A DNA stretch of 64,000 nt from Rhodospirillales bacterium. GTDB lineage: Bacteria; Pseudomonadota; Alphaproteobacteria; CACIAM-22H2. Of the stretch, positions 25,802-44,772 are shown piece by piece. The stretch covers positions 3,980 to 67,979 of the forward strand of contig JAEUKX010000069.1 of NCBI GenBank assembly GCA_016794025.1. Reading direction: 5' to 3'. A program made the translations under genes and the position numbers. Numbering within the stretch: position 1 is the stretch's first letter; each line of letters starts with the position of its first letter. The notes under the pieces were generated by a model. The model was given only the letters and a program-made list of their open reading frames with translations. It was not told where the DNA came from and did no database searches.

Positions 25802-26560
25802 ATGGCCCTCTCGCTGAAGTCCCCGCACATGACCCCGCAACCGGTTCCGCTTCCCACCATCGCCCTCGTCGATGACGACCGGAACATCCTCGCCTCCGTC
25901 TCGCTGGCGCTGGAAGCCGAAGGCTTCAAGGTCCGCACCTGGACCGACGGCACCGAAGCGCTGAAGGCATTGCTTGCCGAGCCGGCCGATCTCGCGATCC
26001 TCGACATCAAGATGCCGCGCATGGACGGCATGCAACTGCTCGAGCGACTGCGCCAGCATTCGCAGCTGCCGGTCATATTCCTCACCTCGAAGGACGACGA
26101 GGTGGACGAGGTAATGGGCCTGCGGCTGGGCGCGGACGACTACATCACCAAGCCCTTCTCGCAGCGCCTGCTGATCGAACGCATCCGTGCGCTGCTTCGC
26201 CGGCAGGCGGCCAACCGCGCGGCCGATGCGGGCGAGGCGCCGGCCGCCGCGGCCGAGCCGCCGCTGACGCGCGGCGACCTGACGCTCGATCCGGAGCGGC
26301 ACTTGTGCACGTGGAAGGGCGAGCCGGTCACGCTGACGGTGACGGAATTCATGCTGCTCAAGGCGCTTGCCCAGCGTCCCGGCCTCGTCAAGAGCCGCGA
26401 CCAGCTGATGGACCTTGCCTATGGCGAGTCGATCTATGTCGACGACCGCACGATCGACAGCCACGTGAAGCGCCTGCGCAAGAAGTTCAAGGCCGTCGAT
26501 TCCGAGTTCTCGCAGATCGAGACGCTTTACGGCCTCGGCTATCGCTACAAGGAGAAATAG
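25802..26560 (+). CDS. chvI: OmpR-family response regulator ChvI
   Basis: [52 protein letters not shown] and [10 protein letters not shown] are typical ChvI segments. Start may be 25829. Confidence 0.92.
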
Positions 26561-26575
26561 GCGAAGGGCGTCCCG

Positions 26576-27361
26576 TCAGGGACGCTGCGCCCATTTGGGT
26601 TTGGGGGTGTCGCCCCACCACGAGTCGGGGACATCTTCCGGCGGATGCCATGTCGTGGCAATTTCGCCGCGCGCCGGCGACATATAGATTTCGCGGCGCG
26701 GTTTGGCGCGGGACCAGTCGATTACGGCTTGGGTTGCCAGCATTCTTCGCCGACCAATGCTACGTTTGTTCACGTTTCCGTCGCGACGCTGATACGCGTC
26801 GTAGGACGTCCATCGCACTGGCACGAGTTGCCGGCAGAGATTTGCCGCAAGGCGCACGACCGCTGACGCGATGCGCTTCTCGACGTGAAGTTCCCGGCGA
26901 TAGGATGTGCTCAAACCGGAGAGTTTCCAGGTCTGGATGGGTGCGTCGGCAGCCGTGCCATACCAGTCCGTCCACTCCCATTCGGCGTGCGGCGGACGCC
27001 AGCTGGCTATCGAGATGATCGGTGACAGGTAGTTCTCCCATGTCCAATACGGCCATTTCGGCCGATCCGGCGGACGGACATGGACAAGATTCGGCTTCCA
27101 GCCGGGCGGCGGGAAGACCGCTTTGAGTGACCATTGCGGCCGCGCCTGATCGATCGACTCGACGATCCGGATCTTGAAATCCTCACGCTCTTCGTCGAGC
27201 AAGCTGAGGCTGTCGTAGAAAAGCACATTCGGATATTTCTTGCGCAGCAGTTGGCCAAAGCGGACCAAGTCCGCTTTCGACCAGAGGCAGTAGAAGTGCG
27301 TGCCGGCATTCGGAAGGATGGCCGGCCGGGTTCCTTCCAGAAAGAAATCTTCGACGTTCAT
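26576..27361 (-). CDS. Trp/Pro-rich hypothetical protein, putative immunity protein (261 aa)
   Basis: ATG at 27361 overlaps the stop of the upstream gene (ATGA); no family recognised. The immunity role is inferred from position only. Confidence 0.55.
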   Translation of the reverse strand: MNVEDFFLEGTRPAILPNAGTHFYCLWSKADLVRFGQLLRKKYPNVLFYDSLSLLDEEREDFKIRIVESIDQARPQWSLKAVFPPPGWKPNLVHVRPPDRPKWPYWTWENYLSPIISIASWRPPHAEWEWTDWYGTAADAPIQTWKLSGLSTSYRRELHVEKRIASAVVRLAANLCRQLVPVRWTSYDAYQRRDGNVNKRSIGRRRMLATQAVIDWSRAKPRREIYMSPARGEIATTWHPPEDVPDSWWGDTPKPKWAQRP

Positions 27362-28959
27362 TCGCTGTCGCTGCCCTTTTTGGCGTTTCCCTCGTGCACG
27401 CGGATTTGTGCCTCCACGATCTTGCGGCATACCGGCCGGATAACCGTCTCACGGTAAGTTTCACGATCTTCATCCGGCCGACGCTTCCGGATCATGCCGA
27501 CAAGATCGGGGATTTCGACCATGTTCAGCATGTCGATATATGCCCTCACTTCTGCCGCGATCGGCGTGCCATCCGCTTTCGCCGTGTAGGTGTTGATATG
27601 GCCGAACTTTCTTGGGTCCGTCTCGTTCTTCGGGCCTTGGGCGAAATCGGATCGGCGCGATTTTCCGGTCTCGTCATCTTTGATGGTGACTTCCTCCATG
27701 TAGTCTTCGTCGTTGCCCTCGAACGACGCGCCGCCCTTGTGTAAGAGCAGTTCAGGAAGTCGCGAATTTTTCGCTTCCTCTGTACAGATCTTCGCGACGT
27801 CCTTGTTGAGTTCCGTCGTCAGATCGCCACCGCGATTGTCGTAGCGGTCTCCGATAGCGCGCGCTTCGAGCTTCCCGGCGAAGTGTTTGCCGATAAGGTC
27901 CGATATTTCTTGGCGCTTCTTCTCCGGCAGCAGTGCCGAAAAGCCTTCGATACCGTCTTCCGCCTTCGGCGGTTCAACCGGACTGCCGGTATTGTTCGGC
28001 ATCTTCGGAGTCGGCAGGCGGTTGCCGGTATCGGTTGGGCCGACCGGCACGGGGGCCGGTAGGGTCGGATCGTTGGGATCGACGAGGTTCAGGGGCGCCC
28101 CCGAACCGGGAATTGCGCGAAGTCCGTCGAGGGTCTTCTTGGCGCCATACGCGCCTGCCGCGGCTGTTCCCGCGGCAAGGAGACCGAGTGCGGCATCCGT
28201 GGCGAACGGAACGGCAAGCGCCATCGGGCCGAGCGCGACCTTCGTTCCTTTCGGCTTCGGCTCCGGCAACTCGATGCCGAATTCGCGCTTCGCGTCGTCG
28301 GATACATCCGGCATCACGGCCGCAAGAAGTTGCCCGCCCTTGCCGGGCTGCAGTTCGTCGAACTTTCCGGCAAGGTCCTTCACGGCCGCGAGGCCGGACT
28401 TGCCGGATTGCTCGATCGTCTGCGCGAGCAGTTTCGCATAGCCGCGGAAATCGCCCGTCCGCACCATCGTGCGCGCGAGGCGCGCGTTCGATGCGTCGGT
28501 TTCGTGGTCGATCCCGGGCAGGCCTTGAATACCGTCGAGCGAAACCGGCGGTGCCTGCCAGACGATCGTGCCGGGATTGTCGTCGCCGACGATTTCGTGG
28601 TGCGCGTCGATGTCGGCCGGCGTGGGCGGCACGTGGCCGGCAAGCAGCGTGCCGAACGTGTCGCGCATGTGGCTGATTGTCGGACCGCCGGGCCGCACGA
28701 TGCCGTCGACGGCGAGACCGTTGCGCGCCTGATAGCGGCGCAAGGCGCCGTCGAGAGCGAGGCCCCAGTAGCCTGTCGGCCCTTGCGTACGCTCCAGCGA
28801 AAGATCGCCGCTATTGGCGAGAATCGCTTCGAGTCTGGCGATGTCGGCGCGGTGGCTGGGATGGCCTGAGCCGACCCAGTCTTCAAGATCGAACCAGTTC
28901 CTGTATTCATCGGCTGGCGGCTCGCGCCGTGCGACCAGGAGATTCTGTTGCCCGTACAT
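27358..28959 (-). CDS. Peptidoglycan-binding domain protein with unknown C-terminal domain, putative polymorphic toxin (533 aa)
   Basis: GYWGLALDGALRRYQARNGLAVDGIVRPGGPT is a PG_binding_1-like motif; followed by a helical region, a hydrophobic Ala/Gly segment, a Pro-rich linker and a charged C-terminal domain. GGAGG RBS before ATG 28959. Confidence 0.65.
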   Translation of the reverse strand: MYGQQNLLVARREPPADEYRNWFDLEDWVGSGHPSHRADIARLEAILANSGDLSLERTQGPTGYWGLALDGALRRYQARNGLAVDGIVRPGGPTISHMRDTFGTLLAGHVPPTPADIDAHHEIVGDDNPGTIVWQAPPVSLDGIQGLPGIDHETDASNARLARTMVRTGDFRGYAKLLAQTIEQSGKSGLAAVKDLAGKFDELQPGKGGQLLAAVMPDVSDDAKREFGIELPEPKPKGTKVALGPMALAVPFATDAALGLLAAGTAAAGAYGAKKTLDGLRAIPGSGAPLNLVDPNDPTLPAPVPVGPTDTGNRLPTPKMPNNTGSPVEPPKAEDGIEGFSALLPEKKRQEISDLIGKHFAGKLEARAIGDRYDNRGGDLTTELNKDVAKICTEEAKNSRLPELLLHKGGASFEGNDEDYMEEVTIKDDETGKSRRSDFAQGPKNETDPRKFGHINTYTAKADGTPIAAEVRAYIDMLNMVEIPDLVGMIRKRRPDEDRETYRETVIRPVCRKIVEAQIRVHEGNAKKGSDSE

Positions 28960-28984
28960 GTTGCCTCCACACTCGAAAGTAGAA

Positions 28985-28999
28985 GAACGTGTATAGAAC
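28985..28999 (-). promoter_or_regulatory. Alphaproteobacterial LexA (SOS) box GAAC-GTGTATA-GAAC
   Basis: Exact GAAC-N7-GAAC (GTTC-N7-GTTC on the coding strand), 25 bp upstream of ATG 28959 and just downstream of a TTGACT -35 (29016-29011). Confidence 0.75.
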
Positions 29000-29105
29000 A
29001 ATCAAAGGGCAGTCAAGGTATACATTCTTATGCCGGCTGAGCTTGGCTGACCTACAGGAATTTCCGCCGCAATGTCGCCATCTGGTTCGCTAGACTGTGC
29101 GCGCC

Positions 29106-30767
29106 ATGGCCGTCCGGTTCGGTTTCCGCCGAAGTTTCTCGCCGCTCACGCGGCGAATCCTTTTCCTGAATTCGCTGCCGCTGCTGCTGCTGGCGGCGGG
29201 CGTGCTGTATCTCGACGATTTCCGCCGCGGCCTGATCGAATCCGAACTGCAGGCGTTGACAACGCAAAGCCAGATCATCGCTGCGGCCCTCGGCGAAGCG
29301 GCGGTTTCCGTCGCCGATCCCGACGAGGAGGAGCGCGACGACCGGCTTGCCCCGGACGCGGCGCGCCAGATCCTGCGCCGGCTGATCGAACCCACCCGCG
29401 TACGCGCGCGCCTGTTCGATTTCACGGGCGCCCTGATCGCCGACACCCGCGTGCTGGGGCAGGGCAGCCTCGCGGTCGAGGTCGAGATACTGCCGCCGCC
29501 GGAGCCCGATGCACCGGCCCCGCACCGCGCCATCGACGCGCTGAGCGAGCTTTTCGGTGGCGGCCTGACCGGCAATCTCAATCTTCCGGCCTACCGGGAG
29601 CGGCGCGATCCCGTGGCGCTCGACTACGAAGAAGCGATTGCCGCTCTCGTGGGCGACGGCGGCCGGGCCGTGCGCCGCGGCCCCGGCGGGCGGCTTGTCC
29701 TGTCGGTCGCCGTTCCCGTGCAGCGCTTCAAGCAGGTGCTGGGCGCGCTGATGCTGTCGAGCGACAGCCGGAACATCGAGCTGGCGCTGCGCAACGTGCG
29801 CCGCGACATCCTGCGCGTGGCGGGCGCCACGCTGCTGCTGACCGTGCTGCTGTCGCTTTATCTTGCCGGCACGATCGCGCGGCCGATCCGCCGGCTGGCG
29901 CGTGCGGCCGACCGAATACGCACGGGCGGCGGCTCGCGCGCGCGCGTGGGCGGCACACTGGGCGCCGGGGCCGCGCTGGTGGGCGCCATCCCCGACCTCT
30001 CGGCGCGCGGGGACGAGATCGGCGACCTGTCGGCGGCGTTGCGCGAGATGACGGAGGCACTGTCGCGCCGGCTCGACGCGATCGACCGCTTTGCCGCCGA
30101 CGTGGCGCACGAGCTCAAGAATCCCCTGACCTCGCTCAAGAGCGCGGTGGAGACGGCCGCCCGCGTGCCGGACCTTTCCGTGCGCGAAAAGCTCATGGCC
30201 ATCGTCCTCGACGATGTCGCCCGGCTCGACCGCCTCATCACGGACATCGCCGGTGCCTCGCGGCTCGATTCCGAACTGAGCCGCGCCAACGCCGAGAAGG
30301 TCGACATCTCGGAGGTACTCGACCGGCTTGTGGACGCGCTTGCCGCGGTCGCAAAGCCCGGCCAGGCGCGTCCCGTGCTGGTCCGGGACGGCGGCGGCCC
30401 CTTCATCGTCATGGGGGTCGAGGACCGGCTCGGCCAGGTCTTCCGCAATGTCATCGCCAACGCGCAGTCCTTCAGCCCGTCGGGTGCCGACGTGCGCGTG
30501 ACGGTCAGCCGGGCTTCGGAATTTGTCACCGTGACAATCGATGACGACGGGCCGGGGATTCCGGCCGACAAGCTCGAATCCATCTTCGAGCGGTTCTACT
30601 CGGAGCGTCCGGCCGACGAGAAATTTGGAACCCACTCCGGACTGGGTCTGTCGATCTCACGCCAGATCATCGATGCACATGGCGGTACCATCGAGGCAGA
30701 AAACAGAAGTAATAACAATGGAATGATAACCGGTGCCCGGTTCCGGATCCGCCTGCCGGCCGCGTAA
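29106..30767 (+). CDS. chvG: Sensor histidine kinase ChvG/ExoS
   Basis: SPLTRRILFLN, LIEPTRVRARLF, VSVAVPVQRFKQVLGALML, HAMP, DVAHELKNPLTS H-box, FYSERP and HSGLGLSIS motifs. Start may be 29097. Confidence 0.92.
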   Translation: MAVRFGFRRSFSPLTRRILFLNSLPLLLLAAGVLYLDDFRRGLIESELQALTTQSQIIAAALGEAAVSVADPDEEERDDRLAPDAARQILRRLIEPTRVRARLFDFTGALIADTRVLGQGSLAVEVEILPPPEPDAPAPHRAIDALSELFGGGLTGNLNLPAYRERRDPVALDYEEAIAALVGDGGRAVRRGPGGRLVLSVAVPVQRFKQVLGALMLSSDSRNIELALRNVRRDILRVAGATLLLTVLLSLYLAGTIARPIRRLARAADRIRTGGGSRARVGGTLGAGAALVGAIPDLSARGDEIGDLSAALREMTEALSRRLDAIDRFAADVAHELKNPLTSLKSAVETAARVPDLSVREKLMAIVLDDVARLDRLITDIAGASRLDSELSRANAEKVDISEVLDRLVDALAAVAKPGQARPVLVRDGGGPFIVMGVEDRLGQVFRNVIANAQSFSPSGADVRVTVSRASEFVTVTIDDDGPGIPADKLESIFERFYSERPADEKFGTHSGLGLSISRQIIDAHGGTIEAENRSNNNGMITGARFRIRLPAA

Positions 30768-41856: not shown

Positions 41857-44772
41857 GTGGCGTTGGCAGGCAGCGCCAGGGTCTTCTCGATACCGGCCGG
41901 CATGCCCTTCCTGCCGGCGCTGGCCCGCGGCATCCTCGACGAGCTGGGCCATGATCCGCTGGCGCTGGCGCGGGCGACCGTCCTTCTGCCCAACCGACGT
42001 GCGACGCGCGCCCTGGGCGAGGCGTTTCTGGCCGCCGGCGAGGGCCAGGCGCTGCTGTTGCCGCGCATCGCGGCCGTCGGCGATGTCGACGAGGACGAAC
42101 TCATCCTTACGGGTGACGAGGCGAAACTCGACGCGGCGTTTGCGCCGGCCATCGATCCGGTCGCGCGCAACATGCTGCTGGCGCGGCTCGTGCGCGCGCG
42201 TGGCGGCATCGCACCGTCGCCGGCCGCGGCGTACAAGCTGGCTGGTGCCCTGTGCGAACTGCTCGATGCCGTGCAGATCGAGGAAGTGGGCTTTTCGAAG
42301 TTCGCGCAACTCGTGCCCGCCGAATACGCAGAGCACTGGGGCCAGACGCTCGCCTTTCTCACGATTCTCGAGGAGGCGTGGCCGAAGATCCTGGCCGAGC
42401 GCGGCGAGATGGACCCGCAGGCCCGCCGTGTCGGCCTCGTTCGCGCCCTTGCCGCGCACTGGGAAGCAAAGCCGCCCGGCGCGATCTGGGCGGCAGGTTC
42501 GACCGGATCGGTGCCCGCGACCGCGTATCTCCTGTCCGTCCTCGCGCGCCTGCCGCAGGGCGCCGTCGTGCTGCCGGGGCTCGATCTTTCGGCGGATGCG
42601 GCGACATGGGAAGCGATCGGCGAGGATCCCTCGCATCCGCAATACGGCCTGAACCACCTTCTGCGGCGGATGGAGGTGCTTCGCGACGACGTCAAGCCCT
42701 GGCGCGGGACGCGCGAGGCGCCGCGGGCGGGGCTTGTCGCATCGGCGCTGTTGCCGGCCGTACGGACCGTCCAATGGCGCCAGGCGCAGCGCTTCGACGA
42801 CGGCGCCTTCGCGAGCCTGATCCGGCTGGAGGCAGGCGACGCGGACGGCGAAGCCGGGGCCGTGGCCCTGCTGCTGCGCGAGGCGCTGGAAACGCCGGGC
42901 CGGACCGCGGCCCTTGTCACAGCCGACCGCAATCTCGCCCGGCGCGTGGCGGCGAAGCTTGCGCGGTGGGGTATCGCGATCGACGACACGGCCGGCCGCC
43001 CGCTCGCGCGGACGGCGCCCGCCACACTGCTGCGGCTGCTGGCCGCCTGCGTCCACGATGCGCTTGCGCCGATCGGGCTGCTGGCGCTGCTCAAGCATCC
43101 GCTTGCCGCGATGGGACGCGCGCGCGCGGCCCATCTTGCCGAAGTGCGCCGCCTCGATCGAAGGGTCCTGCGGGGCCCCCGACCCGCACCGGGTCTCGCT
43201 GGCCTGCGCCTGGCGGCCGAAAAGGCCGGCGATCATTCCGCACTGCTCGCAGCGCTCGAAGCCGCGCTTGGCAGCGTGCTCGAGCGGCAGGGCGACTTCC
43301 TGGCGCGGCTCGACGCGCATGTGGCGGCGGCTGAACGCTTCGCCACGCTCGACGACGGCACGTGCCTCCTGTGGAGCGGCGAGGCGGGGGAAGCGCTGGC
43401 CGGGCTTGTCGCGCAACTCCGGGCGGCAGCCCCGCTCTGCGGGACGATCGAGCCCGCCCAGTTCGCCGATTTCCTCGAAGTGCTGCTCGAGGGTGCCACG
43501 TTCCGGCCGGCGCATGGCGGACATCCGCGCCTGTCGATCCGCGGCACGCTCGAGGCGCGTCTTGTCGGCGCCGACCGGGTCATCCTCGGGGGACTCAACG
43601 AAGGGACCTGGCCCGGCGAAGCGCAGGAAGATCCCTGGATGTCGCGCCCGATGCGCGCCGCAGTCGGCCTGTCGCCGCCCGAACGGCAGATCGGCCTGTC
43701 GGCGCACGACTTCGCACAAGCCCTGTCGGGCGCGGATGTCGTTCTCACGCGCGCACGCAAGGTCGACGGGGCGCCGGCGCTGCCGTCTCGCTGGCTCTCT
43801 CGGCTCGAAGCGCTCGTCGGGGCGGATCCGCGCTGGCGCGCCACGCTTGCCGTCGACGCGCTCGCCTGGGACAGGGAACTTGCCGGCGCTGCCGAGAAAG
43901 GTGCGCGACTTGGCCCGCCGCACCCGACCCCGCCCGCCGATGCGCGGCCGGCGCGCCTTTCGGTGACACGTGTCGAACGCCTGCTGCGCGATCCCTATGC
44001 GATCTATGCGCAGTACTGCCTCCGCCTCAGGCCGCTCGAACCCATCGATGCGGATACGGATGCGATGATGCGCGGCAATCTGATCCACGAGGCGCTGCAT
44101 CTTTTCATCGACGCGAACCCGGACCGGATTCCCGCCGATGCGCTGGACCAGCTCGTGGCGATCGGCCGCAGGCTCTTTGCGCCGCTGATGTCGCGCCCCG
44201 TCGTGTCCGCATTCTGGTGGCCGGGCTTCCTTGCGATCGCCGCCTGGTTCGTCGCCGAGGAGCGCCACCGCCGGGCGGCAGGGTTCCGGCCGGTCGTCAC
44301 GGAAACGAAGGGCCAATTGGACCTGGACGGCTTCGAGCTTTACGCCAAGGTTGACCGCATCGACCGGACGGCGGACGGCAAGCTCGTCATCCTCGACTAC
44401 AAGACCGGGCGCACCCCGACGCGAAGGCAGGTCGCTTCGGGTCTTGCCGGCCAGTTGCCCCTAACCGCGGCGATCGCCAAGGCGGGCGGCTTTCCGGGCG
44501 TGCCGGCGGCATCGATCGCCGAACTCGCCTACGTGAAATTCGGCCTGCCCAGCAATCCCGGTGCGCCGTTCGTGGTTGTCCCCTCGCGCGACGTGCCGGA
44601 CGCCAACCTGCTTGCCGAACGCCTCCTGAACGAGCTCAAGGCGCTCGTGCGGCGCTATGCCGATCCGTCCTTTCCCTACCTTTCGCGCCCGCGCCCGATG
44701 TTCGTCGACTGGCCGGGCGACTACGACCATCTCGCACGCTGGCGCGAATGGGCGAGCGGGGGCGAGGAATGA
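41857..44772 (+). CDS. addB: Double-strand break repair protein AddB
   Basis: VLLPNRRA, AGSTGSVPAT, LVTADRNLARRV, LSVTRVERLLRDPYAIYA and KVDRID...DYKTG nuclease motif. Confidence 0.92.
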   Translation: MALAGSARVFSIPAGMPFLPALARGILDELGHDPLALARATVLLPNRRATRALGEAFLAAGEGQALLLPRIAAVGDVDEDELILTGDEAKLDAAFAPAIDPVARNMLLARLVRARGGIAPSPAAAYKLAGALCELLDAVQIEEVGFSKFAQLVPAEYAEHWGQTLAFLTILEEAWPKILAERGEMDPQARRVGLVRALAAHWEAKPPGAIWAAGSTGSVPATAYLLSVLARLPQGAVVLPGLDLSADAATWEAIGEDPSHPQYGLNHLLRRMEVLRDDVKPWRGTREAPRAGLVASALLPAVRTVQWRQAQRFDDGAFASLIRLEAGDADGEAGAVALLLREALETPGRTAALVTADRNLARRVAAKLARWGIAIDDTAGRPLARTAPATLLRLLAACVHDALAPIGLLALLKHPLAAMGRARAAHLAEVRRLDRRVLRGPRPAPGLAGLRLAAEKAGDHSALLAALEAALGSVLERQGDFLARLDAHVAAAERFATLDDGTCLLWSGEAGEALAGLVAQLRAAAPLCGTIEPAQFADFLEVLLEGATFRPAHGGHPRLSIRGTLEARLVGADRVILGGLNEGTWPGEAQEDPWMSRPMRAAVGLSPPERQIGLSAHDFAQALSGADVVLTRARKVDGAPALPSRWLSRLEALVGADPRWRATLAVDALAWDRELAGAAEKGARLGPPHPTPPADARPARLSVTRVERLLRDPYAIYAQYCLRLRPLEPIDADTDAMMRGNLIHEALHLFIDANPDRIPADALDQLVAIGRRLFAPLMSRPVVSAFWWPGFLAIAAWFVAEERHRRAAGFRPVVTETKGQLDLDGFELYAKVDRIDRTADGKLVILDYKTGRTPTRRQVASGLAGQLPLTAAIAKAGGFPGVPAASIAELAYVKFGLPSNPGAPFVVVPSRDVPDANLLAERLLNELKALVRRYADPSFPYLSRPRPMFVDWPGDYDHLARWREWASGGEE

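Follow-up and report, generated by a model that had tools for sequence, protein, structure and literature searches.

A predicted LexA operator in the shared promoter of a portable two-gene cassette, inserted between chvI and chvG in a Rhodospirillales genome

Between chvI and chvG of the Rhodospirillales genome analysed here, a gene for a protein with a peptidoglycan (PG)-binding domain is encoded in antisense orientation, and upstream of it lies a sequence of the form GTTC-N7-GTTC, which corresponds to the published LexA box of Caulobacter (PMC9578287, Table 1; PMC12700426). As cited in these two papers, the box of the Caulobacter crescentus SOS regulon goes back to da Rocha et al. 2008. The locus raises the questions whether the motif is an operator of the SOS response, what kind of gene it would control, and whether it was obtained from the host or brought along by the gene itself. 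The genome comprises 3.35 Mb with 67% GC in 115 contigs, and the window, i.e. the whole stretch of 64,000 nt that was analysed, corresponds to positions 3980-67979 of its contig C35. The two genes of the locus are referred to as P1 (the PG-binding protein) and P2, and the features described in the following are compiled in Table 1.

The motif at 28985-28999, GAACGTGTATAGAAC, contains its tetramers as a direct repeat exactly 7 nt apart. On the forward strand it consists of GAAC (28985-28988), GTGTATA (28989-28995) and GAAC (28996-28999), and read on the coding (-) strand it is GTTCTATACACGTTC (GTTC-TATACAC-GTTC). This perfect box is located 25 nt 5' of the ATG of P1, between TTGACT (29016-29011) and the GGAGG/ATG region (28968-28957). 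An earlier note on this DNA had given the positions of the motif and of TTGACT and had named the GGAGG RBS, and all of this was confirmed; the ATG is in frame with the ORF of P1. The bare motif statistics are not significant: GAAC-N7-GAAC occurs twice in the window versus 1.78 ± 1.3 times expected from shuffled sequences, and the genome of 3.35 Mb contains 78 matches, mostly in coding DNA and with GC-rich spacers. Therefore, the argument rests on calibration and conservation, and it is because of its position and conservation that the box stands out above chance. Intergenic boxes with AT-rich spacers number about 10 in the genome; three of them belong to cassettes of the type described here, and the others include those of lexA and of a radical-SAM gene. 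The sole other GAAC-N7-GAAC of the window (44617-44631, GAACGCCTCCTGAAC) has a GC-rich spacer, lies deep within an ORF of 971 aa and is most likely a chance match.

For calibration, the SOS genes of the organism itself were used. Its lexA gene (C9:49927-50673; TIGR00498, E 1e-51) carries a perfect box, GAACTAAACTAGAAC, 147-161 nt upstream, and in five related genomes (three Tagaea, two sister genera) lexA is preceded by a perfect GAAC[CT]AAA[CA]TAGAAC. Upstream of recA there are two GAAC-N7-GTAC sites, and recN has one perfect box, with a GC-rich spacer, and one near-perfect box. A gene of the PA0069 family of radical-SAM proteins outside the window has a perfect box, GAACATATCAAGAAC, at C27:43611-43625, 17 nt upstream of its start, and looks like a local member of the SOS regulon. 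Since the organism's own SOS genes carry the motif, this lineage uses the canonical LexA operator of Alphaproteobacteria, of which the sequence at 28985-28999 is a perfect copy. The description of the motif in the earlier note as an alphaproteobacterial LexA box over the promoter of the PG-binding protein gene is thus borne out by the same motif upstream of lexA here and in the five related genomes. Also outside the window, a perfect box with the AT-rich spacer GAACGTATCAAGAAC is present at C28:18939-18953, 53 nt upstream of a gene of low GC content (GC3 0.48) coding for a TcmP-like protein (TIGR04474, E 1e-40), which may be another SOS-controlled mobile element.

In a scan of species genomes, 16 homologous loci (L001-L016) were obtained (up to four on one chromosome), of which nearly all belong to Tagaea or Tagaea-like Rhodospirillales MAGs. 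A perfect GTTC-N7-GTTC was present upstream in 14 of the 16 loci, and L003 and L008 showed one mismatch each. For the promoter alignment, the three copies of this genome and L001-L015 were used (n = 18). The box was found at the same place in all aligned promoters, perfect in 16/18 and with one mismatch in 2/18, so that the conservation upstream of homologs that the earlier note had named as a check was positive and its reading of the gene as wired into the SOS response is supported. The consensus of the 18 promoters is ATAaGAnTGTATaCc-TTGAC-N8-GATT-GTTC-tnTAnnn-GTTC-(leader)-GTGGAG-N5-6-ATG, and the three paralogs of this genome and the copies of other genomes have in common the block ATAAGAnTGTATACC-TTGAC-N8-GATT-GTTC-N7-GTTC-SD. 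With 1.92 bits per column in the tetramers versus 0.63 bits in the spacer, the constraint is specific to the tetramers and the spacer drifts. The GATT preceding the first tetramer is not part of the lexA box, which has AACC at the place where the cassette promoters have GATT. The 15-nt upstream element occurs in the genome at the three cassette promoters only and may be an UP element or the site of a second regulator.

Within the spacer, position 3 is T in 14/18 and position 4 is A in 16/18 promoters, and the remaining positions vary. This TA follows TTGAC after 18 nt, i.e. in the register of -12/-11, which suggests that the box straddles a probable -10 region. A scan for the sigma-70 consensus (spacer of 16-18 nt, T at position 6 of the -10) did not reveal a canonical promoter here, and a hexamer in this register would have the box's invariant G as its last base; for this reason, we infer the overlap of box and -10 from the conserved TA. 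The earlier note had the box covering the -10 region; its placement between TTGAC and the SD and the conserved TA agree with this, and the canonical -10 hexamer is the part that was absent in the scan. The more distant locus L016 shares the N-terminal module but differs in C-terminus and promoter; there, a perfect box (GTTCCGTTTTTGTTC) directly abuts TTGACA, which is independent support for the operator reading. Taken together, the calibration by SOS genes, the near-invariant tetramers with a drifting spacer and the conserved bases at -12/-11 indicate that the sequence very probably is a LexA operator blocking the promoter, and we predict with high confidence that it is functional. Among the more distant family members, no LexA box with up to one mismatch was detected upstream of L020, L021, L023 and L024; the SOS wiring is therefore clade-specific.

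Table 1. Positions of the cassette features and flanking genes in the window. Information is given in bits per column for the alignment of 18 promoters.
Feature	Position	Strand	Information (bits per column)	Remarks
chvI-like response regulator, left flank	25838..26560	+		start approximate
7-bp GC hairpin GCGTCCC-GTCA-GGGACGC	26568..26585	.		between convergent chvI and P2 stops; includes P2 stop codon; no T-run
P2, 261 aa, Trp-rich; putative immunity/partner protein	26576..27361	-		predicted cytoplasmic; ATG overlaps P1 stop (ATGA)
P1, 533 aa, putative toxin	27358..28959	-		ATG 28959-28957; PG_binding_1 at aa 37-88
Short 5' leader	28960..28984	-	2.00 (SD)	SD GGAGG (28964-28968); small hairpin UUCUAC/GUGGAG pairing with SD (RNAalifold)
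Predicted LexA operator GTTC-TATACAC-GTTC, direct repeat with 11-bp period	28985..28999	-	1.92 (GTTC-1), 1.92 (GTTC-2)	conservation; same motif upstream of lexA, recA and recN
N7 spacer	28989..28995	-	0.63	coding-strand positions 3-4 T, A; probable -12/-11 of weak -10 (TACACG)
GATT	29000..29003	-	2.00	invariant (18/18 promoters); directly 5' of first GTTC
-35 hexamer TTGACT	29011..29016	-	1.94 (TTGAC)	function predicted
AT-rich conserved upstream element ATAAGAATGTATACC	29017..29031	-	1.77	5' boundary of cassette; homology between copies starts here
chvG-like sensor kinase, right flank	29097..30767	+		
Other linkers			0.63-0.68	
Non-homologous flank			0.41	

The unit to which this promoter belongs comprises promoter, P1 and P2. 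It starts with the upstream element (29031), ends with the P2 stop (26576) and spans about 2.45 kb, its GC content of 56-62% being below that of the flanks. Homology between the copies runs exactly from the promoter element to the P2 stop, and no terminal repeats or recombinase were found at the cassette ends. This genome contains three diverged copies; the P1 proteins of the two copies on further contigs (one of them C15) are 41% and 58% identical to that of the window, and each copy has the same promoter with a perfect box. On Tagaea chromosomes, up to four copies are present. An origin from plasmids or phages was considered and is unsupported, with no relatives in plasmid or phage collections.

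The window copy is inserted antisense between chvI and chvG, and the same site holds a cassette in four other Tagaea-like loci (L003, L006, L011, L013). In two cassette-free sister genera, chvI and chvG are direct neighbours separated by 145-190 bp. Among the sites of other copies are those behind an EF-G-like and a pyruvate-kinase-like gene, and other genomes provide at least four different chromosomal contexts. Judged from this distribution, the insertion between chvI and chvG is old. The earlier note had interpreted the box as a sign of domestication by the host and not of a recent random insertion. The age of the chvI/chvG copy agrees with the latter part, since four other loci are occupied and the site is empty in two sister genera. 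Domestication as such found no support: the box belongs to the cassette's own promoter, which is common to the three paralogs and to copies elsewhere, and distant members of the family have no box. As a component of a shared promoter block that travels with the cassette, the box is portable and did not come from the host once the cassette had inserted. Colicins, integrons, prophages and other selfish or competitive elements are typically wired into the SOS response (PMC9578287); in the cassette, this wiring is intrinsic as in these elements and does not indicate co-option by the host.

The insertion splits the chvI-chvG operon, and transcription of the cassette runs toward the 3' end of chvI. 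The hairpin at 26568-26585 may act as a bidirectional transcription stop; as only this hairpin lies between the convergent stops, SOS induction could interfere with chvI. The chvG gene must have a promoter of its own in 29032-29096.

In P1, the PG_binding_1 match (E 7e-7, Pfam) is followed by a region of helices at aa ~140-230 and by a linker rich in Gly/Ala and Pro, which is hypervariable (aa ~235-375). The C-terminal (CT) domain, variable and of the alpha/beta type, takes up aa ~378-529 and has 8 invariant residues, among them E423, D438, N456, E470 and K492. The AF2 model is confident for the helical region at aa ~140-230 and the alpha/beta domain at aa 378-529. P1 has no N-terminal anchor, and its central Gly/Ala segment is weakly hydrophobic. 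Comparison of the full-length model with the PDB by Foldseek gave nothing significant: the best nuclease-like hit was BstEII at a probability of 0.18, and BstEII and the influenza PA endonuclease appeared at E 0.6-4 only. These matches speak neither for nor against a restriction-endonuclease-like (PD-(D/E)xK) nuclease fold. For P2, a confident AF2 model was obtained (pLDDT 84, pTM 0.83), which has no structural neighbour in the PDB according to Foldseek (best E 0.13). The P2 family shows a mean column identity of 56% with invariant polar residues, and it is lineage-restricted, with an occurrence in 1 of 401 class-level genomes. Searches with the CT domain and P2 in Pfam, NCBIfam, PADLOC, PHROGs and PDB profiles gave no match.

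Throughout its 166 cluster representatives, the CT domain is found at the C-terminal end. Of 20 distant members that were examined, 13 have kept PG_binding_1 beside the CT domain, and Rhs, PAAR, CDI or LXG domains were detected in none of these 20 proteins. In the distant members L020 and L021, a P2-like ORF follows the CT domain, although the LexA box is absent. In L016 (L016:4780-6161), the N-terminal PG-binding module is joined to a C-terminus with a coiled coil, a stretch resembling a Gly zipper and an acidic low-complexity region; downstream, a P2-like gene is absent. Regarding a possible route out of the cell, neither P1 nor P2 has a signal peptide, their N-termini being hydrophilic, and the cassette ends at the P2 stop and contains no lysis gene. 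The T6SS sheath gene TssC was absent from the four genomes searched, and delivery by a T6SS was rejected on this ground.

Among the copies, the N-terminus of P1 has a mean identity of 63%, compared with 35% in the CT domain and 43% in P2. The identity matrices of CT and P2 are strongly correlated (Mantel r = 0.76, p = 1e-4), and that of the N-terminus is correlated with neither (r = 0.16 with CT, r = 0.19 with P2); in 10 of 14 loci the nearest neighbour according to CT is also the nearest one according to P2. Orphan modules were found downstream of main cassettes in other genomes. At L004:7407-8387, a complete second P2 is preceded by the remnant of a type-C CT domain (its last ~60 residues), both unlike the type of the main cassette of L004, and at L010:7282-7960, a second P2 without its first ~60 residues lies downstream of a complete cassette. 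In the window's own genome, no orphan CT/P2 modules were found. A conserved N-terminus, exchange of CT and immunity gene as a unit, and orphan remnants are hallmarks of polymorphic toxin/immunity systems (PMC3482391). From the co-variation and the orphan modules, a specific interaction of CT with P2 in pairs is predicted, so that both are well suited for assays of structure and toxicity.

Several explanations of the promoter data have to be weighed against a LexA operator. A chance occurrence of the motif in an intergenic region would agree with the two matches in the window, a number close to that expected from shuffling; it is effectively refuted by the same promoter position in 18/18 homologous loci (two with one mismatch) around variable spacers, and we give it practically no weight. 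The tetramers could further be real signals that are not bound by LexA, namely elements of the core promoter or leader, or the site of another, cassette-specific regulator, with a coincidental match to the LexA consensus. As the whole promoter is conserved in blocks, including GATT and the 15-nt element exclusive to cassette promoters, conservation of the tetramers could in principle serve such another factor, and the absence of the box from distant family members and the frequency of the pattern in the genome point in the same direction. This explanation does not account well for tetramers that keep the exact 11-bp period of the organism's own lexA operator around a drifting spacer, which is the signature of an operator and not of a -10 region, nor for the perfect box that L016 has kept at another position in another promoter. 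Also, the cassettes provide three of the about 10 intergenic boxes with AT-rich spacers, a set that otherwise includes lexA and the radical-SAM gene. We regard binding by a factor other than LexA as improbable.

A real LexA operator would also be compatible with a cassette that acts on the cell carrying it, be it in the manner of a toxin-antitoxin system, with a death function like that of BapE, or as a PG-binding checkpoint of division or the cell wall resembling YneA and ChiZ; P2 would then be a regulator. YneA and ChiZ are LexA-repressed division inhibitors that carry PG-binding (LysM) domains too. In line with such a role, neither an export signal nor a secretion system or lysis gene was found, the combination of PG_binding_1 and CT is fixed and not promiscuous, and the invariant polar residues of P2 resemble those of an enzyme or a specific regulator. 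The presence of 3-4 diverged paralogs per genome, the swapping of CT/P2 modules and the orphan remnants rather suggest a diversifying conflict than a housekeeping checkpoint, P1 is far larger than the known SOS division inhibitors or the toxins of toxin-antitoxin systems, and the P2 family is confined to the lineage (1/401 class-level genomes). SOS-controlled toxins directed against the producer are known from Alphaproteobacteria with HigBA and BapE (cited in PMC12700426). Overall, we consider a self-acting cassette unlikely, although it is the main rival of the reading favoured here. The toxin/immunity reading has to cope with objections as well: the CT domain does not move between known delivery domains; a signal peptide, a T6SS sheath gene (four genomes) and a lysis gene are all absent; a PG-binding domain is hard to explain without a visible export route; neither homologs nor fold neighbours are known for CT and P2; and immunity proteins usually are not as large and as conserved as P2. 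In view of both sides, we lean towards P1-P2 being a putative polymorphic toxin/immunity pair, and the combination of a LexA operator with a toxin/immunity-like cassette is the description that we favour with moderate confidence.

For this combination of LexA operator and toxin/immunity pair, the following mechanism is proposed. In the undamaged cell, a LexA dimer would be bound to GTTC-N7-GTTC and, as the repeat spans the -10 region, would block RNA polymerase at a promoter that otherwise should be strong due to its consensus -35 (TTGAC) and AT-rich upstream element. Upon DNA damage, activated RecA would trigger the self-cleavage of LexA and the promoter would fire. P1 and P2 would be transcribed into one mRNA with P2 translationally coupled to P1 via the ATGA overlap, and P2 would neutralise the CT domain in the producer. 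Since P2 has no signal peptide, the CT domain probably acts in the cytoplasm. Following a colicin-like logic, a damaged subpopulation would make the toxin-immunity complex, which probably would be released by lysis, without a dedicated secretion system. The motif and its conservation, the calibration by SOS genes of the organism, the joint variation of CT and P2 and the orphan modules were shown; we infer from them the binding of LexA, the precise places of -10 and transcription start, and the toxicity of P1, its neutralisation and its release.

With respect to known systems, the operator is identical to that of Alphaproteobacteria in tetramers, spacing and direct-repeat arrangement, lexA here and in relatives carries the same motif, and the site lies over the predicted core promoter. 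In contrast to the usual operators, its target is a new one, a multi-copy cassette of uncharacterised proteins and not a gene for repair, translesion synthesis or division, and the box is flanked by the invariant GATT, which the lexA operator does not have. The colicin operons of enterobacterial plasmids share with the cassette a LexA operator over the promoter and a toxin gene directly followed by a co-transcribed protective gene (all predicted in the case of the cassette), the absence of a signal peptide, an expected expression in damaged cells only, and a conserved N-terminal part with a variable C-terminal domain, which in the cassette is a putative killing domain. Unlike these operons, the cassette is chromosomal, is present in several copies and has no lysis gene, and its single direct-repeat box of the alpha type differs from the tandem palindromes of the gamma type in colicin promoters. 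No homology to colicin domains or immunity proteins was detected with Pfam, PDB profile searches or Foldseek.

Polymorphic toxin systems such as CDI and Rhs (Zhang et al. 2012, PMC3482391) resemble the cassette in their conserved N-terminus, hypervariable CT, joint exchange of CT and immunity gene, and orphan remnants downstream. They differ from it in that the cassette has no recognised trafficking domain or secretion system, its CT is not found on other carriers and its N-terminal domain is PG_binding_1; moreover, polymorphic toxins usually are not under direct LexA control. HigBA and BapE of Caulobacter (cited in PMC12700426) are likewise under LexA control in an alphaproteobacterium and encode products that are harmful to cells following DNA damage, whereas there is no homology to the cassette and P1 is much larger, modular, multi-copy and polymorphic. 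From small single-copy membrane inhibitors of the YneA/ChiZ type, with their transmembrane anchor and extracytoplasmic PG-binding domain, the cassette differs by the size of P1 (533 aa), the 3-4 paralogs per genome and the lack of an N-terminal anchor.

By analogy, the P1-P2 pair of Tagaea-type soil and wastewater bacteria is a previously undescribed, putative alphaproteobacterial parallel to damage-induced colicins. As a tentative idea, Tagaea-type Rhodospirillales could possess a new class of chromosomal, LexA-triggered polymorphic bacteriocins with new toxin and immunity folds and without a dedicated secretion or lysis gene for release. If true, Alphaproteobacteria would thereby have their first described polymorphic toxin system under SOS control. 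The data suggest that the colicin strategy, by which only cells with damaged DNA are armed, evolved independently in a lineage of Alphaproteobacteria that is common in metagenomes of wastewater and soil. The alphaproteobacterial SOS regulon would gain a new type of target, namely a two-gene cassette that is portable and diversifying, in place of a repair gene. The cassettes offer a clean natural example of a predicted LexA operator that moves with its cargo, and they show that a two-component operon, chvI-chvG, can be interrupted by such an element. In addition, two protein families without a match in Pfam, PDB sequences or folds were defined, i.e. the CT domain with its 166 cluster representatives and its confidently folding partner of about 260 aa.

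Two loci contain frameshifted P1 genes (L012:4919-4936, L013:4968-5357) and have kept perfect LexA boxes and an intact P2; these frameshifts are either pseudogenes or errors of long-read assembly. In the short 5' leader, an inverted repeat (CTCCAC...GTGGAG) in the homologous leaders of L001-L015 forms a hairpin of 7 pairs according to RNAalifold, two of them compensatory. Its 3' arm is invariant, and the 5' arm shows changes of C to U by which G.U pairs are kept. The window's own copy of the leader folds weakly (-5.2 kcal/mol, z +0.5) and gives the hairpin no support. Across the copies, these data weakly suggest a hairpin sequestering the RBS, which may be a translational brake or a 5' hairpin stabilising the mRNA. 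The distant members L021 (L021:560-696) and L023 (L023:60-200) have a strong sigma-70-like promoter; between it and the gene, a long leader contains a GC-rich hairpin resembling a terminator, and a T-run. These leaders may be attenuators or riboswitch-like controls that replace the SOS control.
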